A stretch of DNA of 64,000 nt from an uncultured delta proteobacterium (GTDB lineage Bacteria > Desulfobacterota > Desulfovibrionia > Desulfovibrionales > Desulfovibrionaceae), in contig LT599018.1 of NCBI GenBank assembly GCA_900079685.1, positions 2,909,990 through 2,973,989 on the forward strand, read 5' to 3'. The stretch's first letter is position 1. Each line of letters begins with the position of its first letter. Both the position numbers and the translations under genes were made by a program. Below are positions 27,083 to 59,664 of this stretch, piece after piece. The notes beneath the pieces are model-generated. The model was not told where the DNA came from and did no database searches. It was given only the letters and a program-made list of their open reading frames with translations.

Positions 27083-27154
27083 GACATTTTCCTTATGAAG
27101 GCCGTCATGCGGCGCGGGGTTGGGGCGCGAGGCTCGCAGGAATATTATGAGAAG

Positions 27155-27910: not shown

Positions 27911-27930
27911 TGTTGCTCTCCGCCAAGCCT

Positions 27931-30121: not shown

Positions 30122-30125
30122 AGTG

Positions 30126-30650: not shown

Positions 30651-31590
30651 TGGAGTTCTCCTGTGCGGGCTTCGGAGCGGCTTCGGCTTCCGGCGCGGGT
30701 TTGGTGGAGGATGCAGACGGATTGGCCGAGTACCAGGACGCGGGGCGCGGCTGATACAGGGAATCGCTGATGCCGCTGGGATAGACAGCATTCAGGCCGG
30801 GAACCGGCACCTTGGCGCGGGCGGCAAAGACGGGATCGAAGAAGTACAGGATCTGTCGCCCGTAAATGGGCGACTGGCCAGCGGTGAACACCAGCATATC
30901 GCCTGGCTTCACCACGCGGCCCTGACTGTCCTTTTCCGGGCCGGGCAGCCTCATGCACTCGTCAGGTGTGAGCAGCGGCCTGGCCGTTTCCGTGACGTTG
31001 ACTGAGGCGTTTTTCATGTGGCCGGTGCGCGAACCGGAGAGCGACACCTTTTCTTCCACGACAGTGGTTTTCCCGGTCATGTCCGAAAGGTTTTTAGCAG
31101 TTTCAATGGTGTTCGGTGCGTAGGCAATTCGCACATGGCAGTTGGCCATGAGGGCGTTATCCTTGCCGTACACGCCGTTAAGCTGGGTAATGTCCTGAAC
31201 GATGATGTAAACTTTGCCGCCGTAGCCCGCGATGTAGGCTAGGGCCTTTTCCATGATCGGCAGCTTGCCCAAGGACGTGAACTCGTCCAGCAACAGTAAA
31301 AGCCTGTGCTTGTACCCGGCCTTGCTGGAACCGTCCGCAAACTCCATTTTGGAGCAAATCCGGCGCACGATCATATCCACCATGAGCCGCAGGAGGGGCC
31401 GCATCCGATCGATGTCCGCCGGGGAAATCACCAGGTAGAGGTTCACCGGCTTGTCATGGTTCATGAGGTCATGGATGCGGAAGTCGCAATGGCCGGTATT
31501 GAGCGCCACAACAGGATCGCGGTACAGCGCCAGGTTGGTCAGGGCCGTGGAGACAACGCCGCTCGCTTCATTCTCCGCCTTGTTCGTCAA
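30628..31590 (-). pseudogene. traG: type IV coupling protein TraG/VirD4, C-terminal half only
   Basis: 320 aa matching the C-terminal half of coupling proteins (LLLLLDEFTSLGKL, GGKVYIIVQDITQL, RPLLTPDE). There is no ATG, an in-frame TAA lies just upstream, and the sequence switches abruptly to AT-rich DNA at about 31591. Confidence 0.8.
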
Positions 31591-31900
31591 GCAGTTTTAT
31601 CTATTTGGAAAATAAAGAGAAATATAAGGCGAAGGCATTTTATACCAGCTTTTATACCAGCAGTTTTTGAAGCTACAGACGGATGTAAGTAGATGGTAAA
31701 AGACGATCTTTGATGGACCATATAACTTTTACGACTGCGTTGGACCTGTCCGAGTTACTAATTTATATAATTAGATGATTTTATTAAATAAAAATATTTT
31801 ACTAACTTTTATACCAACAAAATGCATAGATATAAGCAAATGTTCATGGACATGGCTGGTCATTAGCAAAAAGTGGTGTGCGGGATACTTTACAAAAAAA

Positions 31901-33160: not shown

Positions 33161-33555
33161 ACAAAAAAAGCACCCGTATCACGTTATAGCGTGGCGCGGG
33201 CGCTTTAGTTACAGGTTATTTGCCTTATAAACAACTAATAGCCAGGAATGTTTTTAATGCGTAATCCAGTGCCATAGCAGCCTTGGTCATTGCATGCCAT
33301 TGGGGGCATCCTGCGGTCTAAATTCAAAAACGCGGTCCTCACACATGACCAGCACCATGTTCATCAGTTCTTAGAAAGATAATGTACTATCAAATTTATT
33401 AAAATAAAATAAGGTGTTTTTTACAATCCCCTGTTAAATCAATGCATTCTGAATGTAATGCATTCATTTAGTTGCACAAACTGCCTAAAGCATATATCAT
33501 TTATAAGTGAAGCAAAATTTATTGTTCTTGATACCAATCTCGAAAGGAGAAAAAT

Positions 33556-33695
33556 ATGTCTTATACTGCGGAAATAAGTCGAGGAAATCCCACTGCTTTT
33601 TTATTTTTGATAGACCAATCTGGTTCTATGGAAGACAAGATGTCATCTGGGCGCTCTAAAGCACAACAACTTGCCGATGTACTTATTCGCCTTGA
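33556..33695 (+). pseudogene. von Willebrand factor A (vWA) domain protein, 5' stub only
   Basis: MSYTAEISRGNPTAFLFLIDQSGSMEDKMSSGRSKAQQLADVL contains the MIDAS motif DxSxS. GGAGAA precedes the ATG. Beyond about 33695 the frame runs antisense to another gene and composition changes. Confidence 0.6.
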
Positions 33696-33957
33696 TGATT
33701 TTCGGCTGTGCGGGCGATGCAGCAGGGGGCGCTTTGCTTTTGTTTTCAGGGGCCGGACACGCGGGCGCTTGCTTTTTAGAGTTTCTGATAAACTGGCAAA
33801 GCGTGATGTAGGCCATGGAAATACGCCCGTCTTTGGTCAGCTCCTCATGAATGAGCCGCTTGCTGTATCCTTGCTCCATCATTTGAAAAATTGTTTCCTT
33901 CCAGGCCCGGTACTGGATTTTTGCCTTGTGGTGGCGAAGGCGCTCATGGGCTGGCAT
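33643..33957 (-). CDS. hypothetical protein; its 3' end runs into the vWA stub
   Basis: 104-aa ORF (MPAHERLRHHKAKIQYRAWKETIFQMMEQGYSKRLIHEEL...). Its last roughly 15 codons lie in the AT-rich vWA fragment, so the native C-terminus is probably lost. Confidence 0.4.
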   Translation of the reverse strand: MPAHERLRHHKAKIQYRAWKETIFQMMEQGYSKRLIHEELTKDGRISMAYITLCQFIRNSKKQAPACPAPENKSKAPPAASPAQPKIIKANKYIGKLLCFRAPR

Positions 33958-34147
33958 GACAACTACCCTCCGATCGCACTTCGCAGACTTTGGCCTTGAT
34001 CAGGTTCTCAATTCGCGGCGGCAACTCTTCGCCATTTTCGATTTTCTTCCTGATTTTCCTGTAATGCCGGATTGAATAACCCAATAATTCCGCAGCTTTC
34101 TCATGCGAACCCAATGAGGCGCACAAGAAAAACACAGCATGTTCCAC
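33944..34147 (-). CDS. small HTH-like regulatory protein
   Basis: GTG start preceded by AAGGAG (the track ORF extends to 34198). LGSHEKAAELLGYSIRHYRKIRKKI looks like an HTH. Overlaps the next gene by 14 nt. Confidence 0.4.
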   Translation of the reverse strand: MEHAVFFLCASLGSHEKAAELLGYSIRHYRKIRKKIENGEELPPRIENLIKAKVCEVRSEGSCHASP

Positions 34148-34282
34148 AAGATAACTCCTTGTTTTAATAGATTTATATCTTCCTCGTGTTATAAACATGT
34201 ATTTTCTGATTTACAAGGTCGTAAAATCCGGGTATGAAATTTTTCAGAAGAGAAGTCCAAGACAATGAAAAGGAGGCGTGAA

Positions 34283-34594
34283 ATGCCACAAGACGATTTC
34301 CCGCAACGGTTTGAACGCGCCTATGTGGCTCTCGTTAATGAAAGAGCCATGCTCAGAGGCTATAAAAAAGGCGAATTCGCCGCCAAGCTGTGGCCCTGGA
34401 TGAAGCCCAAAGTCGCGGCAACGCGCTGGAACGCCATACGGGAAAAGGCAGTTCATACCGGCAAGCCACAGAGCGTAACCATTGCGGACGCCCTGCGTAT
34501 GGCGGACGCCCTAGGCGAGGATGTTGGCTATCTCATGGTAATCGCAAAAGAAAGCGTCAGAAAGGAATTCTCTGACGCGGGAAAAAAGGAGTAG
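34283..34594 (+). CDS. XRE/phage-repressor-like HTH protein
   Basis: The ATG at 34283 is preceded by AGGAGG. 103 aa with GYKKGEFAAKLW...VTIADALRMADALG. Confidence 0.45.
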   Translation: MPQDDFPQRFERAYVALVNERAMLRGYKKGEFAAKLWPWMKPKVAATRWNAIREKAVHTGKPQSVTIADALRMADALGEDVGYLMVIAKESVRKEFSDAGKKE

Positions 34595-34598
34595 TTTT

Positions 34599-34823
34599 AT
34601 GGATCAGCAAGACAAGCATGAAGACTTGCGCAAGGTGGAGGGAAAAGCCGAAGAGCTTGTGTCGCTTACACTTGAGGTGTGCGAAAAGCGGCTTACGGAT
34701 TCGCGCAACCTTTCGCCGGAGCATGTCGCGCTGTCATCGGCTGCCATGTCCGTTCGCCAGTCCGTGAAGACGTTCCTGGCGGTAACGGGCATTCCCGGCA
34801 TGGAGGAAAGCGAAGCGGAGTAG
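34599..34823 (+). CDS. hypothetical protein
   Basis: 74-aa ORF, 4 nt after the previous stop, with AAGGAG upstream. Confidence 0.35.
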   Translation: MDQQDKHEDLRKVEGKAEELVSLTLEVCEKRLTDSRNLSPEHVALSSAAMSVRQSVKTFLAVTGIPGMEESEAE

Positions 34824-34894
34824 CAATTTTTTTTGCCTATTTATATCAGAATTTCTGATTTTTAATACCGGATAATCCATTCCAAGGAAAACTT

Positions 34895-35164
34895 ATGGCA
34901 TCGGAGCAAATACTTACCAACAACATTGATGACGCCCTGGAGCGCTTGCTTGCTCCGGTCGCGGAAGTGGAGAGGCTGAAGCGAAAAGAATACCTGACGC
35001 CGGAAGAGGTTGAGCTTGTCTATGGCCTGAAACCCAAGACTTTGGCCAACAAAAGAATGAAGGCGCAAGGCCCGGAGTACATCAAGGACGGGGAGCGGAT
35101 TCTTTACAAGCAGCAGGCCGTAAAGAAGTACCTGGAGGCAAAAACGGTCAGGACGCGCCCGTGA
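34895..35164 (+). CDS. excisionase/AlpA-like HTH DNA-binding protein
   Basis: 89 aa. YLTPEEVELVYGLKPKTLANKRMKAQGPEYIKDG resembles MerR-type excisionase HTH proteins. Located near an integrase fragment. Confidence 0.5.
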   Translation: MASEQILTNNIDDALERLLAPVAEVERLKRKEYLTPEEVELVYGLKPKTLANKRMKAQGPEYIKDGERILYKQQAVKKYLEAKTVRTRP

Positions 35165-35253
35165 TGGCGTTCCGCTCTTCCATAAAACCATGACAAGCCC
35201 CATTGCTGGAGCTTGTCATGGTTGTCCTTCAAGAGCGTGAGGGAGGTTCACTG

Positions 35254-35529
35254 TTACTCTCTGGTTGTGACCGCCTGTTCCAAGACCAGACGGATATAGC
35301 GCGTATAGGGCATTCCTTCCGCTTCGGCCCGAACTTTCACAGCGTTCAACAGGCCTTGCGGAAGGCGCATGTTGAGTGCGGCGCTTTTTGCTTCAAACTC
35401 AAATTTGACGGGCGCGAAACCAGACAGATCGTACTCCGACAAATCGGCTGACTCAACAAAAGCCTCGGCGTCCGCATCGGTTTTCAACGAAGGCATTTGT
35501 TTAAGGTCTTGCTTTTTCATAATGGTCAA
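35254..35529 (-). CDS. brnA: BrnA-family antitoxin
   Basis: C-terminal ribbon-helix-helix block LNMRLPQGLLNAVKVRAEAEGMPYTRYIRLVLE. Lies immediately downstream of, and overlaps, the BrnT-like gene. Confidence 0.7.
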   Translation of the reverse strand: MTIMKKQDLKQMPSLKTDADAEAFVESADLSEYDLSGFAPVKFEFEAKSAALNMRLPQGLLNAVKVRAEAEGMPYTRYIRLVLEQAVTTRE

Positions 35530-35800
35530 CCTCTTTCTGGTGCATGTAACGGGCGCTAATAGGTCGGATAAACGTTTGCCCGCCGATCAGGCGGAACATA
35601 AAAACAAGAAACAGGTAGCGTCCCGCTTTTGTTTTCCCGATGGCCCGCATACGCGGCTCATCAGGGTGGGGGTCTGGCATTACCGAGGGAGCTGATGCAA
35701 AGAATTCTTCAATTTCTTCCCTTGAAACGCCGTGCTTGCCGCACTTCGGCCAATTCCCCTCATCCCAATCAAAGCCAGCTATATCTATTTTCATGTTCAT
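35501..35800 (-). CDS. brnT: BrnT-family (DUF497) ribonuclease toxin
   Basis: FDWDEGNWPKCGKHGVSREEIEEFF ... RAIGKTKAGRYLFLVF ... IRPISARYMHQKE are typical BrnT blocks. Confidence 0.7.
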   Translation of the reverse strand: MNMKIDIAGFDWDEGNWPKCGKHGVSREEIEEFFASAPSVMPDPHPDEPRMRAIGKTKAGRYLFLVFMFRLIGGQTFIRPISARYMHQKEVDHYEKARP

Positions 35801-35917
35801 CCTACACCAACGTAAAGACATTTGTCTACACAATATGGATTTATATAAAGCACACCAAGGAAAAAATCAAGAGACATTTCTTCAGGCCAGAACGCTGAGC
35901 CAGGCGCAGTTAAAGGG

Positions 35918-36568
35918 CTATATCTTTTTATGTCGCGGGATAACGCGCTTCACCGTTTCAGTAGCTTGGCCCTTGGAAAATATCCCTTGCACAAGGGCAA
36001 CCGTCTGGCTTTTTTTGTCCGGGCACAAGTGGGAGTAGCGCTTGGTCATGTCCGGGCTGCTATGGCCGACCATTTCACCAATAACATAGAGCGGAACGCC
36101 CTCCATGGCCAGCCAACTGCAATAGGTGTGACGAAGAGTATGGAAAACAACTTTGTGCCTGCGATCAACATTGGGCGGATTCAGCCCGGCGTCCGCCACC
36201 GCCCGCGCAAAGCTGTTGGTGGCGGAATCAGAGCCAAGCTGCGTTCCCTTTTTGCTGGGGAACAAAAACTCCAATCCATTTTTGCCTGCTACAACCCGTT
36301 CCAACGTTTCATGCACAAGGTCATTGACCGGGATGGAGCGCCTGCCGGTTTTGCCCTCCAGGTGCAGTACGCTGTTTTTCAAGTCCACATCCTGCGGGCG
36401 CAGGCCCAAGATCTCCGAAAGCCGCATCCCGGTATTCAGGGAGATCAGGCTGACGTCATGCCAAAGCTGGCTGCGCTTCTTGACAGCGGCAAGAAGCGTT
36501 TGCGCCTCATCCGCCGTCAAAAAGCGGTCGCGGGCATTGTCCACCTTGGGCAGCTTTACCCTGTCCAT
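35918..36568 (-). pseudogene. tyrosine recombinase, catalytic domain only
   Basis: Catalytic residues are in context (TGMRLSE, HTLRHTYCSWL, GHSSPDMTKRYSH). The N-terminal core-binding domain is absent and the IS30 end abuts at 36592. Confidence 0.75.
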
Positions 36569-36591
36569 CGGCTTCGGGCCGGAATCGCGGT

Positions 36592-37347
36592 TTCAAGTTC
36601 AAAGTGCAACACCCAGTCCTTGGGTATTGGCGTCTTCTAAAAAAACTTCATAGGGTGTCTTAAACCCAAGGCATTTTCTAGGCCGCCAGTTCAAGCGGCA
36701 CATTGCCGCTATGATCTCATCTTGCGTGACCGATGCCAAGCTTACCCCCTTGGGGAAGTATTGGCGTAGAAGGCCATTGGAGTTCTCGTTCAAGCCACGC
36801 TCCCACGAATGGTAGGGGTGCGCAAAAAATCCCTGAGCCTCGAGTGTAGCTGACACATCGGCATGGTAGCTGAACTCCTTGCCGTTATCATAGGTAATAG
36901 TCTGAACAAAGTCCTTAATGGGTGTCAAGAGTCCTTCAATGACCCGCCTTACTTCGCTGGCGCTTTTGTTGGGAGCCTTGCCAAACAGGAAAAGACGACT
37001 TTTACGCTCTGCAAGTGTCACCAAAACGGGGCCTCCTTTACTGCCTTCAACGGTATCAGCCTCCCAATCACCAAGGCGTGAGCGCTCGGCAACAATGGAC
37101 GGGCGTATGTCTATGCTGATACGCCCCTTGATTTGACCTCGTCTGTCGGGTTTGCCATATCGTCGTTTGCGTTTGCGCTGGCAGCGCAAATGGCTGTGCA
37201 GCGTTCCTCCTCGTTTTTTGTCCGCCAGAATGTACTGGTAAATCCATTCATGACTGAGGGCAAAACCTTTGCGTTTGAGAACTCCAGAGATTTGCTCCGG
37301 ACTGAAGTCCTGGTGCAGACACTGTTCAACATACGTCCATACCTCAA
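36592..37347 (-). mobile_element. IS30-family element, 5'-truncated copy
   Basis: The transposase ORF (36599..37347) lacks about 75 N-terminal residues. Identity with the window-start copy ends exactly at 37347. A terminal repeat lies at 36592-36614. Confidence 0.85.
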
Positions 37348-38150
37348 ACCGCGGCGGCGAAATCACGAAATAGCTCTACATACGGATAATCAGTTGATTC
37401 TCGGTCTTTGGCTGCATTCGGATAGACCATCAACTCATGTGCAGAGGCATCTTTCAGACCTGGAGCCTTGAGGTAGGGGGTAATAGCTTCGGCCCCAAAA
37501 GGTAATCCAATTCTACGGATGTCTTTGCCAGTCTGAACCCAGTCAATAGACCCATGCAGTTTAGTAAGCCGGGCGACCCCTTCCAGGTATCGGGGTTCAC
37601 CCCGAATGCCCGGCGGATTGTAGTGCATATCAAGGTCTAGCCGCGAAGAACGGAAAATCGGCATTAGCTGACCGACAAAACGATCCAGCAAATGTAGTCC
37701 TGCCAATTCAGCCCCGGCCTCAATGAGCCGGTCATAGTTGGTGGTGAAAATATTCAACCGATCACGCGTGCCTGAGCGACTGGCAAAACTCATAAGAAAC
37801 GTAACCAATGTATTGAAAGCGAACTCCTGTTTGCTTCCTTCGGCTTCCGCTATGGCGGTTTCATTTTTAAGAATGGAATGAGAAAAGGCATCCATCGCGG
37901 CAGCGATCTCTGTTTGCAGAGTTTCTGCCTTGTCCTTTTCCCCAAGAATCTCTAAACCACGCAATAGTTCATTGGCGACGCGAAGCTGATCTTCCAGATT
38001 CCCCTGTTTCCTGCCGGTTTTGCCTGCCGCCTCTTGAGCTGCCGCACCAATTTCATCTTTAAAACTGGGTAGGTTCGCCTCTCCCATGCCTGCGGCTTGT
38101 TTGTCAGACGCCAGGCTATGCACTGCATTGGTGAGCCCGGAGCCTACCAT
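37348..38150 (-). pseudogene. SIR2-like (SIR2_2 type) defence-associated protein, 3'-truncated by IS30
   Basis: FTTNYDRLIE and LTKLHGSIDW motifs. The reading frame runs straight into the truncated IS30. Confidence 0.65.
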
Positions 38151-38164
38151 ACCATCAACCCATC

Positions 38165-38559
38165 TTGTCGTTATTTCATGGAATGACCCCTTGGGACGTA
38201 TTATTGAAACCTACCGTGACTTGGGGCGCGCCTCCCAGGTCACTCTTCTTGTTGGCCCAAGCCTGGCCTCGCTTCAGCAACTGACAGAGCGGGGAGCTTT
38301 GTACACGGAGTATCAGCAAGGCATTGAGAAACGAAAGATAGGCCTGGATGCTGTGAAAAAACAGGAAGATGCAGAACTTGCGGCAATCAGGGAAAAGTGG
38401 GCAACCAAACGTAGTGAGCTGGAAAAACTAAATATCGCCAAGAAAAATCGTCGCAGCCTGATCCAACTCGCCCGTAAGCATGAGGCTGAAGAAAGAGCCA
38501 TGGCAAAATTGCCGTATCAGACTCCCCGGAATAACGGCACGGTGCGGGCCTCGCCGTAA
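38165..38559 (+). pseudogene. startless coding fragment (coiled-coil; mobile-element protein C-terminus?)
   Basis: Open frame ...LGRIIETYRDLGRASQVTLLVGP...YQQGIEKRKIGLDAVKKQEDAELAAIREKWATKRSELEKL... with no start codon before residue 140. Confidence 0.3.
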
Positions 38560-38880
38560 TGGGACTCCATGTAGTCTATCTGACCGAGACCAAGCCTCCT
38601 GAACAATGTTCGGCTCAAGACCTAATCGATGAATTGGTAAGGCGGGCTTTGCAAAAGAGGGATAAGTCTGAGGTAGCTGGTGAGGTCGCCAGTTCATGGT
38701 TCCCAACTGAAAAGAAATAGTCCAGTCCACAAATGAAGCGGGATAAAGGGATTTTCCCCTTTGTCCCGTTTTTCTATCCTGCTAATCCCATTGGATATAT
38801 ACAGAACCACTCCAAATCACTCCTTTTGCTCCATTCGGCAATGAAAAAAGGACTTTCGGTGTTATCCGAAAGTCCTTGAT

Positions 38881-38935
38881 TTCTCTGGCTCCCCGGGACG
38901 GGGTTGAACCGCCGACCTAGTGATTAACAGTCACC
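38881..38935 (-). repeat. tRNA-Asn 3'-end copy (att-type direct repeat, left)
   Basis: 55 bp identical to 46265-46319 (50 nt of the tRNA 3' end plus 5 nt). It has its own terminator-like hairpin at 38851-38877. Confidence 0.9.
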
Positions 38936-39039
38936 TATAAAGATAAGTAATTTCAGTTAATTATAATTTAACCATTTGGAATTGCATGGCTTTGCAAGCG
39001 CATGAATGTGTACGAAATTTCAGGCTTTTTCAGCTCAAG

Positions 39040-39084
39040 TGGAGCAAAATTGGAGCAAATGGAGCAGGCGTTTTCTCTGCTCCA
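39040..39084. repeat. TGGAGCA repeat cluster (candidate integrase arm-type sites)
   Basis: TGGAGCA at 39040, 39051 and 39060; inverted TGCTCCA at 39078. Confidence 0.5.
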
Positions 39085-39090
39085 CCGAAC

Positions 39091-39393
39091 TTATTGATGC
39101 GCCACAGGCCCGCAATCTGTTTTCACGTCGAGGGGAACGCCAAGCGACTTGGTAATCTTCAAAATAGTCTCAAAGCGGGGCTTTGTCCCAGGGGAAAAGG
39201 TCTTATACAGGCTTTCCCGGCTGAGGCCGGTATCTTTGGCGAGTTGCGCCATACCCCGCGCTTTTGCCACGTCGCCAAGGGCGGCAAGGAAAACATCCGG
39301 GTTGGGGTCCTCCAGGCAAGCGGAGAGGTATTCCGCTATCACTTCTTCATTGTCGAGATAGCGGGCGACGTCAAATTCACGAATCTTGATCAT
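39091..39393 (-). CDS. addiction-module antidote protein (HigA-like)
   Basis: YLDNEEVIAEYLSACLEDPNPDVFLAALGDVAKARGMAQLAKDTGLSRESLYKTFS is typical of the antidote family. 4-nt overlap with the upstream killer gene. Confidence 0.75.
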   Translation of the reverse strand: MIKIREFDVARYLDNEEVIAEYLSACLEDPNPDVFLAALGDVAKARGMAQLAKDTGLSRESLYKTFSPGTKPRFETILKITKSLGVPLDVKTDCGPVAHQ

Positions 39394-39695
39394 AGCCCTT
39401 TCTCCTTAATTTCTCGCCACATGGCTTTCGCCAGCTTGATGTCCCGCGCCTGTGAGCTTTTGTCTCCGCCAACTATGAGCAGATAGACGTTCAGCCCTTC
39501 TTGCGCGTAATACACCCGATAGCCAGGGCCGAAATCAATGCGCATTTCTGAAACACCCTCTCCTGCCGGTTTGCAATCTCCGAAGTTTCCCGCTTTAGCC
39601 GACCGCAGCCGGGCGAATATTCGCGCCCGGCCCTTATGGTCTTTGAGCTTTTCCAGCCAATCGGCGAAAATATCCGTTTCATGAAGGGTATTCAT
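39390..39695 (-). CDS. addiction-module killer protein (RelE/HigB-like)
   Basis: FADWLEKLKD...ARLRSAKAGNFGDCKPAGEGVSEMRIDFGPGYRVYY...LLIVGGDKSSQARDI. Confidence 0.75.
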   Translation of the reverse strand: MNTLHETDIFADWLEKLKDHKGRARIFARLRSAKAGNFGDCKPAGEGVSEMRIDFGPGYRVYYAQEGLNVYLLIVGGDKSSQARDIKLAKAMWREIKEKGL

Positions 39696-39790
39696 GGAGG
39701 CATTGTAGCCTATGGGATACAAAAGTCAAGAGCACCATGAAGCGTTCACTTGAAAAAATAAGGTTATCTGCCGCATGCCGTAAGCCCGGT

Positions 39791-40297
39791 TTATGAACCG
39801 GCGAAAAGCCGCCTGACATGGTCCAGCCCAAGAAAGAGAACGAGCGGATCAAAGGGCGAGGCGGCAAAGCCCCGCGCCCGGTAAAAGGCGGCAGCCCGCT
39901 CATGCAGCGCATGGACGAGCAAGGCGCGAATGCCCGCAATGTCCGCCGCCTGAAGCGTCCTCAACAGGGCGTCCCGTAACATGCCGGTCCCAGCGTTTTG
40001 TCCGGCATAACGCCGGTCAACCGCAAGGCGGGCCAGAATCATAACCGGAATGGGCTGGGGCATGTTCCGCCGGACACTGCCCGGCGCGAACTTGTGTTCA
40101 ATGCTCCCCACAGCCAAAGAGTAATACCCGGCAACCTCGTTGCCGGAGCAGACGACATAGGTGCGGGTAGCGCCGGAAGTTTCGTTTTTCAGCGCCCGCT
40201 GGCGCAACCAGTCATCCAGCGAAGATTCCCCGCAAAAAAACTGGGAGGCATCATGCGCCGCAGTCAGTGGGGCAGGAGCGGAGAGCGCCAAGCTCAT
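39791..40297 (-). CDS. GNAT-family acetyltransferase toxin (TacT/KacT-like)
   Basis: FFCGESSLDDWLRQRALKNE...GYYSLAVGSI...LARLAVDRRYAGQNAGTGML. ATGA overlap with the upstream DUF1778-type gene. Confidence 0.75.
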   Translation of the reverse strand: MSLALSAPAPLTAAHDASQFFCGESSLDDWLRQRALKNETSGATRTYVVCSGNEVAGYYSLAVGSIEHKFAPGSVRRNMPQPIPVMILARLAVDRRYAGQNAGTGMLRDALLRTLQAADIAGIRALLVHALHERAAAFYRARGFAASPFDPLVLFLGLDHVRRLFAGS

Positions 40298-40569
40298 TGT
40301 TTTTGCCACGGCGCTTGGGTTGCGAAAAGTTTGCCCAAACCGCGCACCTGTTCCTCGGATGGCGGGGTGTCCAGGGCTGTTTGCAGTTCGTTCCACGTAT
40401 CGCTGTCCAGCGTGAAGCGCGTCCGGTCGAGAATCACCTCTTCAGCAATCCGGAGGGTGTTTTCAAGAATAAACGCCGTCCGGCTTTTTCCCATGCTCTG
40501 GGCCGCCTGGTCGATCAGCGCTTTTTCCGCGTCGGAAATACGCAGGTTTATGGATGCTGTCGCGGTCAT
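40294..40569 (-). CDS. DUF1778-family antitoxin (TacA-like)
   Basis: INLRISDAEKALIDQAAQSMGKSRTAFILE is the typical ribbon-helix-helix N-terminus. AGGAG lies upstream. Confidence 0.75.
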   Translation of the reverse strand: MTATASINLRISDAEKALIDQAAQSMGKSRTAFILENTLRIAEEVILDRTRFTLDSDTWNELQTALDTPPSEEQVRGLGKLFATQAPWQKQ

Positions 40570-40655
40570 GGCGATGGTCTCCTTTTTCAGGAAAATATAG
40601 CGCCCTCTTGCGTTTGTCAATACATTGTATATACAGACAGGCGCACTCAAAAATC

Positions 40656-40944
40656 TTAGCGCCCGGCCAGATCATCTTTGTACATCATATAGGCAATGAC
40701 GGCCTTTTTAATAAAATTCCTGACAAATTCATACTCACTCATCAACAGCAACAAATCCAGGGCAGTCATTCCCGTACCTTTGTAATACCAGTTTCTCACT
40801 CTCTCGGTCGGGAGGACAAGCTCATAGGCTATCTGTTTTGAGGTCAATCGCTGCTTTCTTATGATTTCCACAAGATGCTTTGTCAGATGATTATTCCCAC
40901 GCGCATTTTTGTGGCAAATCTGCCACAAGTTACTTCTGGACATG
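40656..40944 (-). CDS. hypothetical HTH-like protein
   Basis: 96-aa ORF preceded by AGGAG, divergent from the serine recombinase gene. Confidence 0.4.
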
Positions 40945-41009
40945 CATTTCTCCTTAGTTAAAAGTATGAATCTGGATTTTTTCAGCCGCTGCAAGGAGAT
41001 ACAAGCCAG

Positions 41010-42578
41010 ATGCCACAGGCGGGAACCGCATATACAATAGGTGAAATAAAGAAACTGCGCCTGAGAGGTGCCATGTATATCCGCATGTCCACAGAATTGC
41101 AGGTGGAGTCCCCCGAAAATCAGGGGCGTGAAATACGTGCGTATGCAGACAGTTACGGCATTGAAATCGTCTCAATATACACCGATCTTGGCGTCAGCGG
41201 CATGAAGGCCGAGGGGCGCGAGCAATTTCAAGCCATGCTGGATGATGTCGAATCCGGTCGTAATGAATACAGCATCGTTTTGTATCTGGATGACAGCCGG
41301 TGGGGGCGCTTTGTCGATAGTGGGGAGGCGGAATATTACCGCATGCGGCTGAAACTCAGAGGAGTTATCTGCCAGGCCTGCGACAAGCCGCTTACCATGA
41401 CCGCTACTTTTGCGGATCGCCTTCTGACGATGGTGAAAGACGAGAGCGCCAGTGACTATTGCCGCCAGCTTTCGCAAAAAGTGTTTGTCGGCCAACGCAA
41501 TCTGATTCTAAAGGGATACAGGCAAGGCGGTCCGGCGGGGTTCGGCTTACGCCGGGTGCTTGTGGATGAATCCGGAAACCCCAAGCAAGAGTTGACTATC
41601 GGCCAACGCAAAAGCCTCCAGACAGAAAGAGTCGTGCTGGCCCCCGGTCCTGGGGCTGAACAGGAAACCGTGCGCTGGATGTACGATCAGTTCATTGCCG
41701 GAGCACGGGAAACAGAAATCGCGGACATGCTTAATGCCGAAGGCTGCCTGACGGACTTTGGCAGATTCTGGACGAGAGGTTCTGTACGGGAAGTGCTGAC
41801 CAACGAAAAATATATCGGCAACAACCTGTACAACCGCAGATCCGGAAAATTGAAAAGCAAGCCCAAGCCAAATCCGGAGAGCGAATGGATACGGAAGGAA
41901 CGAGCTTTCCAGCCGGTTGTTGATGCCGAACAATTCTACACCGTTCAAAGGCTCATCCGGGAGCGGCATAAAAAGATATCCGACATTGAGATGCTGGAAC
42001 GTCTCAGATCGTTACATGCTCAAACGGGCCGCTTGTCCGCCATGATCATTGACGAGTCGGAAAACATGCCTCCGAGCAGTCTTTATAGCAGCCGGTTTGG
42101 CGGATTGCTGCGCGCGTATACCCTGATCGGGTATATGCCGGAGCGGGATTACCGGTATGTGGAGATTAACCAGAGACTCCGGATCTTGCACGGTGATATT
42201 GTTTCGCAAACAGTGTCGGACATAGAAGAGCTGTGTGGACGGCGAATATGTATCGACCCGGAAACAAGCCTGCTCGAATTGAATCACAATTTATTCATAT
42301 CAATAGTTATCAGCAGATGTTTCCTTACCTCTTTCGGGATGCGCCGGTGGAAAATCCGGTTTGATACCGGGCTACACCCCGACATCACTGTGGCTGTGCG
42401 CATGGATGCGGCAAATGAAAATATACATGATTACTATATCCTGCCCGCGTTGGAATTTGGGAACAGCGCCTTGAGGTTACAGGATGAAAACGCCGATCTG
42501 TTAGATAGTTTTCGTGCGGACAGCCTTGATTACCTTCTGGGAATGAGCATTAACATCAGCCTCGACAAGGCGGTATAA
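41010..42578 (+). CDS. large serine recombinase
   Basis: Resolvase catalytic N-terminus AMYIRMSTELQVESPENQ...YTDLGVSGMK...LDDSRWGR, followed by a recombinase domain. 522 aa. Confidence 0.85.
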   Translation: MPQAGTAYTIGEIKKLRLRGAMYIRMSTELQVESPENQGREIRAYADSYGIEIVSIYTDLGVSGMKAEGREQFQAMLDDVESGRNEYSIVLYLDDSRWGRFVDSGEAEYYRMRLKLRGVICQACDKPLTMTATFADRLLTMVKDESASDYCRQLSQKVFVGQRNLILKGYRQGGPAGFGLRRVLVDESGNPKQELTIGQRKSLQTERVVLAPGPGAEQETVRWMYDQFIAGARETEIADMLNAEGCLTDFGRFWTRGSVREVLTNEKYIGNNLYNRRSGKLKSKPKPNPESEWIRKERAFQPVVDAEQFYTVQRLIRERHKKISDIEMLERLRSLHAQTGRLSAMIIDESENMPPSSLYSSRFGGLLRAYTLIGYMPERDYRYVEINQRLRILHGDIVSQTVSDIEELCGRRICIDPETSLLELNHNLFISIVISRCFLTSFGMRRWKIRFDTGLHPDITVAVRMDAANENIHDYYILPALEFGNSALRLQDENADLLDSFRADSLDYLLGMSINISLDKAV

Positions 42579-42579
42579 G

Positions 42580-43467
42580 ATGGAAGCCAATGAAGTCATC
42601 CTTATCCCCGTTAGTGAAGTCCATATTTTGAATCCGCGCGTGCGTAACCAGAACATCGCTGAAGAGATCCGCCGTAACATCAGGAATGTCGGGCTGAAGC
42701 GCCCTATTACTGTAACCTTAAGCACAAACCGTAAATCCGGGAAAAAATACGATCTCGTCTGCGGCCAAGGACGATTAGAGGCCTTTATTGATGCTGGCGA
42801 AACGGAAATTCCCGCCATCATAATAGAAGTCGACAGGGAAGGCGCTCATATCATGAGCTTGGTGGAAAACATCGCTCGTCGGAACAATAACCCCTTGGAG
42901 TTACTCCATGGTATCACTTACTTGAAAGAGCAAGGCTATACCGATGGGGAAATAGCCGGAAAAACAGGTCTCAGTCGGGAATGGATTCGCGGAATAGGAA
43001 AATTATTGGAAAGCGGAGAAGAGCGCCTGGTGAGCGCGGTGGAAAAGGGGCGTATACCGCTTTCCGTCGCTCTGCAAATTGCTGTCGAAGATGACGCCGC
43101 CATACAGACGGCCCTGATGGAAGCCTATGAGACGGGCCAACTCAGCGGGGCCAAGCTCGTTGCCGTGCAGAGGCTGCTTGATCGACGCAAGCATTACGGC
43201 AAATACTATGGGAAAAAGATGCCAGCTCCTTCAAAAAAGAGGCCGCAGCTCTCCACCGAGGAACTGGTTGCGGTTTATGAGAACAATATCAAAAATAAAA
43301 AACGGCTGATCGCCAAAGCCGACCACCTCAAGCGAGTGCTGGCGTTTTCAGCGGCAGCCCTGAACGAATTGCTGCGTGATGAGCATTTTACCAATCAGTT
43401 AAAGGCGGAAGGGGTGAACGACATTCCCGAACGGCTGGCTGATTTGCTCGGCGAGGTGTACGCATGA
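42580..43467 (+). CDS. ParB/Srx-fold N-terminal domain protein (RepB-like), copy A
   Basis: VHILNPRVRN...YDLVCGQGRLEAFIDAG...SLVENIARR. Starts 2 nt after the recombinase stop. Confidence 0.7.
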   Translation: MEANEVILIPVSEVHILNPRVRNQNIAEEIRRNIRNVGLKRPITVTLSTNRKSGKKYDLVCGQGRLEAFIDAGETEIPAIIIEVDREGAHIMSLVENIARRNNNPLELLHGITYLKEQGYTDGEIAGKTGLSREWIRGIGKLLESGEERLVSAVEKGRIPLSVALQIAVEDDAAIQTALMEAYETGQLSGAKLVAVQRLLDRRKHYGKYYGKKMPAPSKKRPQLSTEELVAVYENNIKNKKRLIAKADHLKRVLAFSAAALNELLRDEHFTNQLKAEGVNDIPERLADLLGEVYA

Positions 43468-44357
43468 GCCCTGGAATCAAACACGGCTTTGAAAGAAAGC
43501 TTGTCACACTCGCCATAGCGGACCTGCGTCTTACCAAAACTCTGTCCGTGCATATCAAACAAGGGCAGAAGTATTTACAAATATTGTCCTCCATCCGGGA
43601 AGCCGGCCTTATTGAACCGCCGGTTGTCGTTCTCTCCGGCAAGGGCCGCGAGTACCTTCTTTTGGACGGGCACCTGCGGATTATGGCGCTGACTGAATTG
43701 GGCAAGACGGAGGTGAACTGTCTGGTGTCGGTGGATGACGAAGGCTACACCTACAACAAGTTCATCAACAGGCTCTCGGCTGTCCAGGAACACAAAATGA
43801 TCGTGAAAGCCCTCAACGATGGTGTTTCTGAAGAAAAGCTGGCGGCGTCGCTAAACCTTAATATAAAATCAATTCGCAATAAAAAGACCATGTTGGATGG
43901 AGTCTGCCAGGAAGCCGCCGATTTGCTGAAAGACAAAATCATGTCGGAGAACGTATTCCGGGTATTGAAGAAAATGAAACCCCTGCGGCAAATCAAGGTC
44001 GCCATGATTATGAACGACCAAAAGCGTTACAGCGATGCGTATGCCAAGATTTTGCTGGAAGGAACGTCTCCCGACCAGCTTGTTCATGAGCCGAAGAAAA
44101 AAAAGCTTTCACCGGCCGCTCTGGAAAAACGCATGCGCCTGGAAGAGGAGAGCATCGCATTGAGCGAGGACATCCGTGCCCTGAATGATTCCTATGGAAC
44201 GGACATGATCCATCTGAACATCGTTCAGTCATATCTGAAAAGGCTGATGGGCAACGAAAAGATTGCGGGCTACCTGCAAAAACATCACCCGGAAACCCAT
44301 GAAAAGTTTTCTGAAATAGCCGAAATGGATTTTTTCAAAATGAAGGCTGTGAGCTGA
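43464..44357 (+). CDS. ParB/Srx-fold N-terminal domain protein (RepB-like), copy B
   Basis: IREAGLIEPPVVV...YLLLDGHLRIMAL. ATGA overlap with copy A. Confidence 0.65.
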   Translation: MSPGIKHGFERKLVTLAIADLRLTKTLSVHIKQGQKYLQILSSIREAGLIEPPVVVLSGKGREYLLLDGHLRIMALTELGKTEVNCLVSVDDEGYTYNKFINRLSAVQEHKMIVKALNDGVSEEKLAASLNLNIKSIRNKKTMLDGVCQEAADLLKDKIMSENVFRVLKKMKPLRQIKVAMIMNDQKRYSDAYAKILLEGTSPDQLVHEPKKKKLSPAALEKRMRLEEESIALSEDIRALNDSYGTDMIHLNIVQSYLKRLMGNEKIAGYLQKHHPETHEKFSEIAEMDFFKMKAVS

Positions 44358-55939: not shown

Positions 55940-57247
55940 GGCTCATCCGGTTGAAGAGTGCTTTTGACAAAAAATATGGACATGGGTTCCAATCGAGATC
56001 ACGCAAACGATCATCGAAAAGGCGGAATCACCATGTCCACGAGTTTTGTTTATCATGCCATGGGCCTGTCGGGCTACGAGTATGTGCATCAGAAATTTGA
56101 AAGCGGGAGCGTTACATTTCGGCTCCGGCCAAAATGGCGGCTTCTATGCTGTCCGGCCTGCAAATCGAAACAGGTGACCAGACGGGGCATGTATTTTCGA
56201 AAGCTGCGCAGTTTGCCTATTGGGCGCAAGCCAATCCGGCTGTTGATTGAAGTGCCGCGCGTCTGGTGTGCCGTTTGTGGCTGCATCAGGCGTATCAGTC
56301 TTGGCATTGCGGAGCCCAGACGGAGCTATACACGAGCTTTCGCCCGGCACGTTCTTGAACTGGCCAGACTCATGACACTCAAGGATGTGGCGCTGTTCCT
56401 CGGTGTCGGCTGGGACTGCGTGAAGGACATTGTCAAGCGCAATCTGGCTCGACGCTTCGCTCGCCCAAGGCTGCGCAGCGTGCGGTATCTGGCCATAGAC
56501 GAAATCAGCGTTCGGAAAGGGCACAAGTACCTGACTCTGGTCATGGACCTTGAGAGCGGCGCGGTGCTCTTTGTTGGCGATGGCAAGGGCGCGAAATGTC
56601 TGGAGCCGTTTTGGGTGATGCTTCGCCGTTCCCGCGCCAAGGTCCAGGCCGTGGCGACGGATATGAGCACCGCCTACATCGGCGCGGTATTGGACAATCT
56701 GCCGGGAGTCCCCCTGGTCTTTGATCACTTCCATGTGGTCAAGCTGATGAATGAAGCACTTACAGAAATCAGACGCGGTCTGCATCGCGAGGCGGACGTT
56801 ATGGGCAAGAAGGTGTTGAAAGGCAGTCGATGGATTCTACTCAAGAATCCTGAGAATCTTTCAGCGGAGCGCGATGAAGCGGCCAAACTGCAAGAGGCGC
56901 TGAAGCTCAACGAGCCGTTGGCGGTGGCCTACTATATGAAGGAAGACCTGCGGCAATTTTGGAGTCAGTCAAACAGGGAAGCTGCACAAGTGGCTATAGA
57001 CGATTGGGTAAGCCGCGCCCAGGCGTCAGACATTGGTCCGCTTATGCGTGTGGCAACGACCCTCGCTGGGCTCAAATTCGGCATCCTGAATTGGTACGAG
57101 CACCCCATATCCTCTGGACGCATGGAAGGGACCAACAACAAAATCAAGGTGCTCAAGCGGATGGCCTACGGATACAGAGACATGGAGTTTTTCAAACTCA
57201 GAATCCTCGCCATTCACGAGGCAAAGTACGCTTTAACCGGATGAACC
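55940..57247 (+). mobile_element. ISL3-family insertion sequence (1308 bp)
   Basis: Imperfect inverted repeats GGCTCATCCGGTTGAAG... / ...CTTTAACCGGATGAACC. Perfect 8-bp target duplication ATAGTTCG at 55932-55939 and 57248-57255. Confidence 0.9.
56033..57244 (+). CDS. ISL3-family transposase
   Basis: N-terminal zinc-finger region CPACKSKQV...WCAVCGC and a DDE body. 403 aa, with the stop inside the right inverted repeat. Confidence 0.85.
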   Translation: MSTSFVYHAMGLSGYEYVHQKFESGSVTFRLRPKWRLLCCPACKSKQVTRRGMYFRKLRSLPIGRKPIRLLIEVPRVWCAVCGCIRRISLGIAEPRRSYTRAFARHVLELARLMTLKDVALFLGVGWDCVKDIVKRNLARRFARPRLRSVRYLAIDEISVRKGHKYLTLVMDLESGAVLFVGDGKGAKCLEPFWVMLRRSRAKVQAVATDMSTAYIGAVLDNLPGVPLVFDHFHVVKLMNEALTEIRRGLHREADVMGKKVLKGSRWILLKNPENLSAERDEAAKLQEALKLNEPLAVAYYMKEDLRQFWSQSNREAAQVAIDDWVSRAQASDIGPLMRVATTLAGLKFGILNWYEHPISSGRMEGTNNKIKVLKRMAYGYRDMEFFKLRILAIHEAKYALTG

Positions 57248-57649
57248 ATAGTTCGGTGACGGTACGGTAGTCCCGTTGGTTGTCGGCCCTTTCCCTCAAT
57301 GCTCCCGCGCGCGGCGGGCAACGCCGCGACACGGCCGCCATGGATACCTCTCCCGTCAAAGAGCCGGGCGGGGCATATCCGCAACAAGCCCGCCGGGGCA
57401 GCGCAAGGCTGCCGGGATGGTCCCAAGGCGGGTACGTGTTGTGGTGCGTCCAACGTACTGAAACCGGGAAGAACCCGCAATCATTTCTTATTGTGCCAGT
57501 ACACGCGGCAACCGGACGGGAACGCGGAGGTTGTCAATAATGCCCTGATTTTACGTGCAAAAAAACGAAAGAAAAAAGTGAATTAATCCTTGCCATTCAA
57601 AAGTGAATGGCTTAAAGCTAAAACAATAGTTTTTGCAGGAGTCTTTTCC

Positions 57650-57784
57650 ATGCCCAGAAGCTTACGTTCCATAAACCGCGCAACCGCGTGTGACAGACAG
57701 ACGGCATCCGCTGTCTCTTCTGTCGTGCGCAACGTTGTCGTAGTAGTAAGCTGGCCTTTCCAGGGAGGCGAGGGTAACCTTTAA
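57650..57784 (+). CDS. candidate leader peptide rich in Val codons
   Basis: AGGAG lies 8 nt upstream of the ATG. 44 codons, MPRSLRSINRATACDRQTASAVSSVVRNVVVVVSWPFQGGEGNL, with 8 Val in 13 residues, five of them consecutive at 57734-57748. Confidence 0.55.
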   Translation: MPRSLRSINRATACDRQTASAVSSVVRNVVVVVSWPFQGGEGNL

Positions 57785-57819
57785 CGGAAGAGTAAAGTTG
57801 TTACGCTCCTGCTGAAAAA

Positions 57820-57849
57820 GCGGCCTCCCCAGGGAGGCCGCTTTTTTTT
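57820..57849 (+). terminator. intrinsic terminator (attenuator) upstream of the acyl-CoA synthetase
   Basis: 9-bp GC stem GCGGCCTCC/GGAGGCCGC with a 4-nt loop, followed by T8. It ends 72 nt before the ATG at 57922. Confidence 0.8.
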
Positions 57850-57921
57850 GGCGGCGCTCCCGGCGGGGACAAAAAAGCAGGTGTGACCATTCGGACATTG
57901 TAACAGATAGAGGATTGTACC

Positions 57922-59616
57922 ATGTTGTTCACAGACAAACTCCGCTCAGCAACCCATGAAGAACTTTGCCGGGATTTCTCCATCGCCGTGATGCCCGACT
58001 TCAACTTCGCTTTCGACGTTGTAGACCGCAAGGCTTTTCTGACCCCTGACGCTGTTTGTGTCCGCCATATCGACGATTCGTTCGCGCGCCGGGATTTCAC
58101 TTACAAGGACATGGCAAGGGCCTCCAGCAAAATGGCAAACGCCCTGAAAGGCCTTGGCCTGAAAAAGGGCGACAAGGTGCTCCTGATGCTGCACCGCCGC
58201 ATCGAATGGTGGCAGGCCATGCTCGGCCTGCACAAACTGGGCGCGGTGGCCATCCCTTCCCCGGCGCAACTGACCCCCCATGACATCGCGTTCCGCTGCC
58301 GCAAATCCAGAGCCAAGGCCATCATCACGGATTACCGGATCAGCGGCGGGGTGGAATCTGTCCGGGAAAGCCTGCCGGACCTCTGCTTCTGCATCCAGGC
58401 CGGGCCCGAACAGGCCGGGGAAACAGCCGCCCTGCCTTCCGCCCTGCCTTCCGAAGGTTGGCTTGATCTCGCCGCCCTGCTGGAAGACGCCTCCCCGGCC
58501 TTCCCCCGCCCCCTTTCCGACGAAGAGCTTGCCTGCGGCAAGGACCCCCTGCTGATTTTCTTCTCCTCCGGCACCACGGGCATGCCCAAGATGGTTCTGC
58601 ACAACCACGAGTACCCCCTGGGGCATTATTTCACCGCCGCCTACTGGCACAACGTGGAGCCCGGCGATCTGCACATGGCTGTCGCCGACACCGGCTGGGC
58701 CAAAGCTGCCTGGGGAAAGTTTTACGGCCAGTGGATGGCCGGGGCCACCTCCCTCATTTACGACTTCCGCGGGAAGTTCTGCCCGGCCAATCTGCTCCGG
58801 GTCATCACCGGGGAAAGGGTCAACAGCTTCTGCGCCCCGCCCACCGTGTACCGCCACCTGATCCAGGAAGACCTGGCGCAGTATGACTTTTCCCACCTGC
58901 GGCATTGCGCCGCTGCCGGTGAGCCCCTCAACGAGAGCGTGATCCATGACTGGAAGCAGGCCACCGGCCTGAACATCCACGAAGGGTTCGGCCAGTCGGA
59001 AACCGCCCTTATGATCGCCTCGCTCCCCTGCATGGAATTCAGGGCCGGTTCTATCGGCAAGCCGGTTCCGGGCTGGGATGTGGCTCTCCTGGACGACAAC
59101 GGGGAAATCTGCCCGGCGGGCGAGGAAGGGGAGATCTGCGTGCGCATCGCCGAAAAACGCCCCCACGGCATTTTCACCGGATATCTGGACGAGTCGGGGC
59201 AGATCATCTCCGCCAGACGCGGCGATTGGTACCATACGGGCGACAAGGCCCGGACGGACGAGGACGGCTACTACTGGTTCCTCGGCAGGGTGGACGATTT
59301 AATCAAGACCTCGGGGTACCGCGTGGGCCCTTTTGAAGTGGAAAGCGCGCTGGTCTCCCACCCCGCCGTGCTGGAGGCCGCCGTGACCGGCGTGCCCGAC
59401 GCCGTCCGGGGCCAGGCCATCAAGGCCAGCGTCGTGCTGACCAAAGACTACGCGCCTTCGCGTGAGCTTGTTCAGGAAATTCAGGAGTATGTGAAAAGCA
59501 TAACCGCGCCGTACAAATACCCCAGAATTGTGGAATTCGTGAAGGAACTGCCGAAAACTTTCAGCGGCAAGATAAAGCGGGCGGAGATCCGCGAAAGGGA
59601 TCTGAAGACCGCGTAA
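57922..59616 (+). CDS. AMP-forming medium/short-chain acyl-CoA synthetase
   Basis: AMP-binding signature FFSSGTTGMPK, YHTGD, and C-terminal SGKIKR. 564 aa. Confidence 0.9.
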   Translation: MLFTDKLRSATHEELCRDFSIAVMPDFNFAFDVVDRKAFLTPDAVCVRHIDDSFARRDFTYKDMARASSKMANALKGLGLKKGDKVLLMLHRRIEWWQAMLGLHKLGAVAIPSPAQLTPHDIAFRCRKSRAKAIITDYRISGGVESVRESLPDLCFCIQAGPEQAGETAALPSALPSEGWLDLAALLEDASPAFPRPLSDEELACGKDPLLIFFSSGTTGMPKMVLHNHEYPLGHYFTAAYWHNVEPGDLHMAVADTGWAKAAWGKFYGQWMAGATSLIYDFRGKFCPANLLRVITGERVNSFCAPPTVYRHLIQEDLAQYDFSHLRHCAAAGEPLNESVIHDWKQATGLNIHEGFGQSETALMIASLPCMEFRAGSIGKPVPGWDVALLDDNGEICPAGEEGEICVRIAEKRPHGIFTGYLDESGQIISARRGDWYHTGDKARTDEDGYYWFLGRVDDLIKTSGYRVGPFEVESALVSHPAVLEAAVTGVPDAVRGQAIKASVVLTKDYAPSRELVQEIQEYVKSITAPYKYPRIVEFVKELPKTFSGKIKRAEIRERDLKTA

Positions 59617-59626: not shown

Positions 59627-59664
59627 AACGCACAAGGAGCCGCCGGGGCGGTTCCTTGTGCGTT
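59627..59664 (+). terminator. terminator-like hairpin after the acyl-CoA synthetase
   Basis: Stem AACGCACAAGGA/TCCTTGTGCGTT. The downstream T-run is weak. Confidence 0.45.

Follow-up and report, generated by a model that had tools for sequence, protein, structure and literature searches.

We describe here a putative ribosome-mediated (leader-peptide) transcription attenuator that would sense charged tRNA-Val and control a single gene, encoding an acyl-CoA synthetase, in a 64,000-nucleotide (nt) stretch of contig LT599018.1 from an uncultured delta proteobacterium (this whole stretch is termed the window). Based on sequence comparison and RNA folding models, we estimate the probability of this reading at roughly 0.78. 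Attenuation of this gene by a Val leader had been proposed before from the letters of the DNA alone (hereafter the sequence-only reading), and every computational test that we ran, whether of the open reading frame (ORF), of the RNA segments, of their spacing or of folds computed with a masked strand, agreed with it. That proposal featured a 44-codon ORF with a good Shine-Dalgarno sequence and Val codons, which could indeed be read from the sequence as follows (coordinates given without a locus name refer to the window):

57637-57641, + strand: Shine-Dalgarno sequence AGGAG of the leader ORF, with the ATG (57650) 8 nt further on.
57650-57784, + strand: leader ORF of 44 codons plus TAA, encoding MPRSLRSINRATACDRQTASAVSSVVRNVVVVVSWPFQGGEGNL.
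57734-57748, + strand: run of five Val codons (GTT GTC GTA GTA GTA), the proposed sensor.
57922-59616, + strand: AMP-forming short/medium-chain acyl-CoA synthetase of 564 amino acids, with Pfam domains AMP-binding and AMP-binding_C.

The leader was recovered from 10 distinct DNA loci (the window, L161, L162, L165, L166, L167, L169, L172, L174 and L175, the last of which is cut off), and two further leaders are known as peptides alone. All ten DNA copies start with ATG or GTG, preceded at 6-10 nt by a GGAG or AGGA motif (10/10), and ORF lengths in the relatives range from 43 to 49 codons. Each of the 12 leaders carries between 4 and 11 consecutive Val codons. The main codon of these runs is GTA, the rarest Val codon in the 27 long ORFs of the window with a share of 6.4%, and in the L174 leader (266-298) all 11 consecutive Val codons are GTA. 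The spread in run length resembles triplet slippage and might tune the sensitivity of the sensor. Apart from an Ile placed just ahead of the run in one leader and a Leu in another, the run is made of Val only. The peptide flanking it diverges and the N-terminal two-thirds drifts, the Val run being the sole conserved peptide feature outside segments that are constrained as nucleotides. Nevertheless, when the leaders are aligned, the insertions and deletions in the 5' half are multiples of three. In L166 a +1 insertion past the Val run leads to an early stop (GGG-TAA) and the nucleotide sequence is nonetheless kept; conservation past the Val run thus constrains the RNA and not the protein.

A comparative search for Val-rich leaders in front of orthologous synthetases, suggested in the sequence-only reading, found the leader directly upstream of every orthologue that we fetched. 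These share 71-89% protein identity with the enzyme of the window (from 89% down to 71%: L165, L161, L162-164, L169, L167/168, L166, L172/173 and L174) and the leader upstream of them was detected by nhmmer with E-values of 1e-23 to 1e-74 (1e-37 to 1e-74 for the loci named here). The leader ORF and the pairing segments, whose absence from relatives had been named beforehand as an outcome speaking against an attenuator, were kept. No leader was found upstream of relatives with 66% identity or less, nor by nhmmer in about 160 loci carrying relatives of at most 61% identity among the genome and metagenome contig matches listed. Among the matches listed, these relatives of at most 61% identity were also without any upstream ORF containing a Val/Ile/Leu run. 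When such ORFs were sought upstream of the synthetase in 175 homologous loci, 15 matches were obtained on the forward strand, 13 of them members of the leader family, compared to 2 in the reverse-complement control. Searching a collection of 5.8 billion proteins with a profile built from the leader peptides retrieved seven called ORFs, all of the same family, and these precede the same synthetase wherever downstream DNA exists. The flanking genes vary from locus to locus (AhpC, an enoyl-CoA hydratase/electron transfer flavoprotein (ETF) cluster, a CHASE2 cyclase, an MFS transporter, MltA), which indicates that promoter, leader and synthetase form a self-contained unit.

We compared the nucleotide sequence of the window with that of eight relatives, segment by segment. 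From the Val run to the terminator, identity reached 84-91% in seven of the eight and 72% in L174, the lower value being due to its longer Val run. The corresponding values were 69-82% for the coding DNA of the synthetase, 61-73% for the 5' half of the leader and 57-70% for the spacer between terminator and synthetase. Between Val run and terminator, conservation hence exceeds that of the coding DNA of the enzyme itself, and on grounds of conservation the leader stands well above chance.

The RNA elements of this region, as named in the following, are:

57659-57752, + strand: helix P0, AGCUUAC (57659-65) with GUAAGCU (57746-52), closing a structured 5' domain inside the ORF (minimum free energy (MFE) folds).
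57686-57730, + strand: hairpin P1, within the ORF and the 5' domain (MFE folds, RNAalifold).
57754-57759, + strand: strand C, GCCUUU, partner of strand D.
57763-57769, + strand: strand D, GGGAGGC, 5' strand of the antiterminator, a copy of the terminator right arm that pairs with GCCUCCC (57823-29).
57770-57808, + strand: hairpin P3, spanning the leader stop codon and setting D beside the terminator left arm (folds).
57806-57812, + strand: CUCCUGC, invariant in 9/9 sequences, complement of the leader Shine-Dalgarno region GCAGGAG (57635-41).
57815-57849, + strand: intrinsic terminator, made of A5, the arms GCGGCCTCCC (57820-29) and GGGAGGCCGC (57832-41) and U8 (57842-49).

Folding of the 241-nt region gave an MFE of -99 kcal/mol, compared to -75.3 +/- 4.7 kcal/mol for shuffled sequences (n = 200; z = -5.1; 0/200 as good), and both the terminator and the GCCUUU:GGGAGGC hairpin lie within this MFE structure. 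The terminator stem and T8 tract proposed earlier were present, with the arms read as listed above. A 10-bp G+C-rich stem followed by U7-8 occurs in the nine complete leaders, 70-77 nt ahead of the synthetase start. The stem is invariant, and its folding energy is -25.5 kcal/mol in the window and -24 to -28 kcal/mol in all relatives; a consensus promoter/terminator scan made no call and missed the terminator hairpin despite this energy.

Alternative folds, which the sequence-only reading had recommended computing, and spacings were determined for nine leaders (the window, L161, L162, L165, L166, L167, L169, L172 and L174), and both the antiterminator and the terminator forms were obtained. When C was masked and the transcript stopped short of the right arm, the MFE structure was the antiterminator in 9/9 sequences, in line with the proposed pairing of GGGAGGC with GCCTCCC. 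In this fold, the antiterminator helix meets P3 and a small hairpin in a three-way junction, with energies of -26 to -31 kcal/mol. The RNAalifold consensus has the partners 'swapped', the terminator right arm being bound by AAGCUGGCCUUUC and the left arm by D. The further proposal that GCCTT sequesters GGGAGGC was borne out to the extent that the C:D hairpin (57754-59 with 57764-69) is part of the MFE structure, but at -5.2 kcal/mol it is weak. Counted from the first base of the last Val codon, C ends after 13 nt in all nine leaders and D begins after 17 nt (18 in one leader). A ribosome covers roughly 12-15 nt downstream when a codon occupies its A site, and the spacing thus fits a ribosome that, stalled on the last Val codon, covers C and frees D. 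Up to this point the findings are direct: the elements themselves, how well they are conserved, their unvarying spacing and the alternative folds that were computed.

Compensatory changes were found within the 5' part of this structure. In P0 an A-U pair is replaced by G-C in two sequences and a C-G pair by U-A in one; in P1 six base pairs are altered on both sides among the leaders. P3 is 89% paired across sequences with one pair altered on both sides. Twelve pairs of the structure as a whole are altered on both sides. Its covariation score of 0.184 stands against 0.152 for shuffles (0/500 reach 0.184) and 0.07-0.10 for slid controls. The domain closed by P0 is possibly a pause or synchronising structure in these models. 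In several MFE folds of the full-length RNA the CUCCUGC segment is paired to the Shine-Dalgarno region, and it may in this way limit repeated translation of the leader, or shut translation off once the transcript is complete.

Such an elaborate RNA could also serve another sensor, namely a riboswitch or a protein- or tRNA-binding leader acting on the same terminator, with the ORF and its Val codons being incidental. About 115 nt are nearly invariant, which is above the usual need of simple hairpins, and the structure contains a three-way junction. This would not account for the start codon, Shine-Dalgarno sequence, frame and Val run being kept in 12 leaders while the adjoining codons change, for the restriction of 5'-half indels to multiples of three, nor for the fit of the Val run-to-C distance to a ribosome footprint in 9/9 leaders. 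Moreover, no Rfam family matched at threshold and no T-box motif was found upstream of the homologues. We therefore regard a sensor of this kind as quite improbable, and return to the leader peptide as the sensing element.

Sequences ahead of the leader ORF contain a candidate promoter and two repeats:

57590-57595, + strand: -35-like hexamer TTGCCA (within CTTGCCA) of the putative promoter.
57613-57618, + strand: -10-like hexamer TAAAGC, 17 nt past the -35-like box in all 10 loci.
57592-57611, no strand assigned: inverted repeat GCCATTCA-aaag-TGAATGGC in the promoter spacer.
57574 and 57599: direct repeat AAAAGTGAAT (GTGAAT), in copies 25 nt apart that flank the -35-like box.

After re-alignment by eye, the pattern CTTGC[CAG]N, a 17-nt spacer and TAnnnn was found in 10/10 leader loci with A/T-rich sequence ahead of it. 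It sits 47-66 nt ahead of the leader start codon in the ten DNA copies, and would place the start of transcription near 57625. Within the -10-like element the leading TA alone is invariant. Both repeats had been noted by the sequence-only reading, and both are present, but the second direct copy lies at 57599 and not at 57600. Its interpretation of this region as promoter and operator could be followed in part: the conserved pattern makes a promoter plausible, whereas the operator finds no support beyond the closest relatives. In L161 the inverted repeat is GCCATCAG-atgg-CTGATGG, with compensatory changes relative to the window; L165 and L167 retain just CCAT...ATGG, and more distant leaders are without the inverted repeat. 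As it is kept in the nearest relatives alone, an operator is unproven, and the inverted repeat may be a binding site for a regulator in the closest relatives.

From these elements we infer the transcription start, pausing, actual termination and the response to valine, according to the following scheme. Transcription would start near 57625 from the TTGCCA-N17-TAAAGC promoter, and the leader ORF would be translated during RNA synthesis. When Val-tRNA is scarce, the ribosome would stall in the Val run, made mostly of the rare GUA codon. Once the last Val codon occupies the A site, the ribosome would cover the next ~13 nt, that is strand C, leaving D single-stranded. P3 would set D beside the terminator left arm, so that D could pair with GCCUCCC as this arm emerges; this pairing would block the terminator and RNA polymerase would read into the synthetase gene. 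When Val-tRNA is plentiful, the ribosome would continue to the stop codon inside P3, and D would be partly covered or recaptured by C. With D unavailable, the -25 kcal/mol terminator and its U8 tract would form and transcription would end at ~57849. Both C:D and the terminator are local hairpins that would form fast behind a non-stalled ribosome.

Several observations weigh against this scheme or qualify it. The logic of the stalled ribosome, as put forward in the sequence-only reading, agrees with the 13 nt and 17-18 nt spacings, but when a partial transcript is folded free of ribosomes the antiterminator is favoured in seven of the nine sequences, by 1-7 kcal/mol, and in these models an untranslated leader could by default either terminate or read through. 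Since C:D is weak and ribosome-free D prefers the left arm, termination under plentiful valine would rest on kinetics and on a ribosome near the stop codon. Folds of the full transcript favour the terminator form whichever sequence is taken, and read-through must consequently be kinetic. A ribosome at the stop codon had been expected to cover 57763-69; the stop does lie inside P3, but 13 nt past D, as in 7/9 leaders (6 nt in L166 and 19 nt in L167), so that a terminating ribosome would cover D just partly. The 3' half is invariant and hence without covariation, and the alternative pairings rest on conservation and energies. Given that its leading TA alone is invariant and that the consensus promoter scan made no call, the -10 element is weak by Escherichia coli rules. 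Finally, the regulated gene is not a known valine-pathway gene, and no linked 2-oxoisovalerate oxidoreductase or ilv genes were found beside the unit in the window, L162, L166, L167, L169 or L172.

Two further elements frame the synthetase gene:

57910-57914, + strand: Shine-Dalgarno sequence GAGGA of the synthetase.
59628-59663, + strand: long, nearly perfect hairpin past the synthetase stop, with a poor U tract (read from sequence).

The genes that follow are on the opposite strand or distant; the synthetase gene is probably monocistronic, with the 59628-59663 hairpin as its 3' end. The closest solved relative of the enzyme is 3ETC (MacsMa of Methanosarcina acetivorans), matched over its full length with E = 1.3e-172, and the substrate preference of MacsMa is 2-methylbutyrate (PMC10455477). 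Among NCBIfam models the best match was MbcS (NF047394), at 447 bits relative to a cut-off of 850 bits; the synthetase is thus not an MbcS equivalog. MbcS activates isobutyrate and 2-methylbutyrate and has a role in the synthesis of branched-chain fatty acids from exogenous acids (PMC10026030, PMC11167679). Anaerobes are also described to use branched short-chain acids for the synthesis of branched-chain amino acids (PMC10658910).

We tentatively propose that the enzyme activates isobutyrate and that the resulting isobutyryl-CoA is converted to 2-oxoisovalerate by reductive carboxylation and then to valine by transamination, in a salvage route induced by valine hunger. This may be its function, albeit with a confidence much below that in the attenuator. 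The Val-only sensor argues for isobutyrate over 2-methylbutyrate, and since an attenuator induces under shortage it fits salvage and not catabolism. Reductive carboxylation is known from anaerobes; with no linked oxidoreductase or ilv gene, the route from isobutyryl-CoA to valine draws on this general knowledge. An enzyme of the pyruvate:ferredoxin oxidoreductase type is encoded at 543-4061, 54 kb off, inside a TRAP-transporter/IclR cluster.

The main functional rival to valine salvage is the supply of fatty-acid primers. The valine-sensing attenuator would then be real, and the enzyme would supply isobutyryl-CoA or a short acyl-CoA primer for iso-branched fatty acids, or activate some other acid. 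Iso- and anteiso-branched fatty acids are abundant in the membranes of Desulfovibrio. The NCBIfam model with the highest score belongs to an enzyme with a role in branched-chain fatty acids (PMC10026030, PMC11167679). In none of the loci examined are valine-pathway genes linked to the synthetase. On the other hand, the MbcS score is far under its equivalog cut-off. What a sensor of tRNA-Val charging registers is the demand of protein synthesis, and such bacteria make their main branched primers from leucine and isoleucine rather than valine, while the leader has Val codons only. We thus consider a primer-supplying enzyme rather unlikely and retain valine salvage as our working proposal.

The only match of the leader model outside the family pointed to a possible origin of the attenuator. 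It was the 3' end of dnaA together with the terminator that follows it in L170 (E = 9e-12). When the terminator was removed from the model, the L170 site was still the best non-family match in 1.3 Mb (E = 7.8e-4), and the next-best match was the orthologous site in L171 (E = 1.1). The matching regions are:

L170, 1948-2173: dnaA end, matching window 57627-57849.
L171, 2101-2196: dnaA end, matching window 57627-57849.

The alignment of leader and dnaA is colinear over the last ~50 dnaA codons and the terminator, and begins in frame at the leader start codon. An internal AGG-AGT...ACC-GTG of dnaA aligns with the Shine-Dalgarno sequence and GTG start of the leader, and '..RQMAGAISIIERNSGIIISG..GG' of the dnaA end with '..RQTASAVSSVVRNVVVVVSW..GG' of the leader. 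The Ile-Ile-Ile tail of dnaA lies opposite the Val run and a palindromic MAGAI-coding stretch opposite P1, and the terminator stem is nearly identical. Profile-profile comparison of the leader with the dnaA end using hhalign gave P = 0.0044. The locus is arranged alike in L170 and L171, with thyX, dnaA, terminator, a HTH_3/Cupin_2 regulator and a paralogous synthetase in this order. These paralogues (P0017, 66% identity, and P0022, 62% identity) follow the regulator gene (L170 2199-2762, L171 2345-2911) and are without leader, and the leader-linked and dnaA-linked synthetase lineages appear to be under different control systems. The source genome has a paralogue of its own, P0029, which is 75-77% identical to the L170/L171 type and 61% to the leader-linked enzyme. 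Together with the match at the dnaA end, this makes descent from dnaA plausible, albeit unproven. The attenuator may have arisen from a duplicated 3' fragment of dnaA, a coding piece beside a terminator having been recruited as amino-acid sensor, a scenario suggested by the alignments that we regard as speculative.

The same resemblance invites the view that the ORF is uncoupled from the synthetase, either because it encodes a small hydrophobic protein and has a terminator to itself or because the region is what remains, inert, of a dnaA 3' end; it is annotated as a gene by gene callers in some contigs. The unit is always located 135-146 nt upstream of the synthetase, across varied genomic contexts. 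Its peptide has a variable N-terminus and, in L166, a frameshifted C-terminus, and its nucleotide conservation exceeds that of the adjoining coding DNA, which is unexpected of a neutral remnant. A duplicated GGGAGGC and a fixed spacing would in addition be useless to a free-standing small gene. An uncoupled ORF therefore seems to us still more improbable than a sensor of another kind, and the region is best read as an attenuator of the synthetase gene.

With regard to the surroundings of the unit in the window, the nearest feature upstream is a mobile element:

55940-57247: ISL3-family insertion sequence with 25-nt imperfect terminal inverted repeats, transposase at 55958-57244.

It ends ~340 nt upstream of the leader promoter and does not touch the leader. 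Two IS4-type transposase genes (DDE_Tnp_1 with DUF4372) are located at 18736-19956 and 31914-33116, and remnants of a conjugative element (topoisomerase, ArdC-like protein, TraG/TraD coupling protein, RepB) are found in 25295-44357; judging from these genes the window is rich in mobile DNA. A glycyl-radical enzyme gene is present at 20473-22794. The cluster at 543-8937 encodes a 1172-amino-acid enzyme of the pyruvate:ferredoxin-oxidoreductase type, a TRAP transporter (DctP, DctM), an IclR regulator and a D-2-hydroxyacid dehydrogenase, and may be a locus for the utilisation of 2-oxo/2-hydroxy acids. In L162 (926-9692) the unit is located among genes for a HpaB/AbfD-like enzyme, enoyl-CoA hydratase, FixC/FixX-like proteins, ETF alpha and beta and acyl-CoA dehydrogenase, a gene content that marks these surroundings as a short-chain acyl-CoA redox cluster.

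If true, Desulfovibrio-like bacteria would have a clear case of leader-peptide attenuation, no such element having been found for them in Rfam or in the literature searched, and the target would be a salvage enzyme and not a biosynthetic operon. As a regulatory signal is independent evidence of function, the Val-only sensor points to isobutyrate as substrate for this Macs/ACSM-like clade, and the old idea of a conversion of isobutyrate to valine by reductive carboxylation becomes directly testable in sulfate reducers. The wider synthetase family occurs in Bacteroidales, Clostridia, methanogens and spirochaetes. Should the dnaA origin hold, the unit would mark isobutyrate-to-valine salvage for a widespread, poorly annotated synthetase family of anaerobes, and the descent from dnaA would offer one of the few cases in which the origin of an attenuator can be traced.

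In order to relate the unit to known systems, we scanned 57200-58100 with Rfam at E-values up to 10. The best match was Phe_leader, with 26.8 bits relative to a gathering score of 55 and covering the terminator part alone; none of the amino-acid leader families (Phe_leader, Leu_leader, His_leader, Thr_leader, Trp_leader and others) reached its gathering score, and no T-box was matched in this region at E up to 10. A regular-expression search for the T-box motif upstream of the synthetase in the 175 homologous loci was also negative. A literature search for a Val leader before an acyl-CoA synthetase, or for such a leader in Desulfovibrio, retrieved nothing relevant. The paper by Rodionov et al. 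(2004) was consulted for amino-acid attenuators in delta-proteobacteria and has no passage on them.

The Corynebacterium ilvB-II motif (PMC10272879) is likewise a recent, lineage-specific leader ORF with branched-chain codons that controls the downstream gene, but it belongs to another phylum, has ilvBNC as its target and is unrelated in sequence. With respect to the enzyme, both Trp residues of the ADSGW..VWGK segment of MacsMa are kept in the synthetase of the window; MacsMa differs in being archaeal, in its clearly diverged alignment, in an isoleucine-related preferred acid and in being without a known leader. MbcS of Staphylococcus aureus differs in that it provides primers for fatty acids, and attenuation is not known for it.

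Finally, the unit shares with the leaders of E. coli ilvBN (ivbL), ilvGMEDA (ilvL), trp, his, leu, thr and pheA a translated ORF with a cluster of cognate codons, an intrinsic terminator before the structural gene, an antiterminator sharing a strand with it and a decision that would depend on the position of the ribosome. The leader peptide resembles that of ivbL, with V runs separated by R, a likeness that does not amount to homology. The use of a rare codon in the Val run has a parallel in the leu leader, which uses rare CUA codons. In contrast to the E. coli leaders, the unit contains Val codons only, without a Leu/Ile cluster, and has a single synthetase and not a biosynthetic operon as its target; it further differs by its Desulfovibrio-like host, by a very weak anti-antiterminator and by the extra P0/P1 domain inside the ORF. 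As proposed here, it belongs by mechanism to the classical attenuators known from trp, his, leu and ilv, and is unusual in the gene that it controls.

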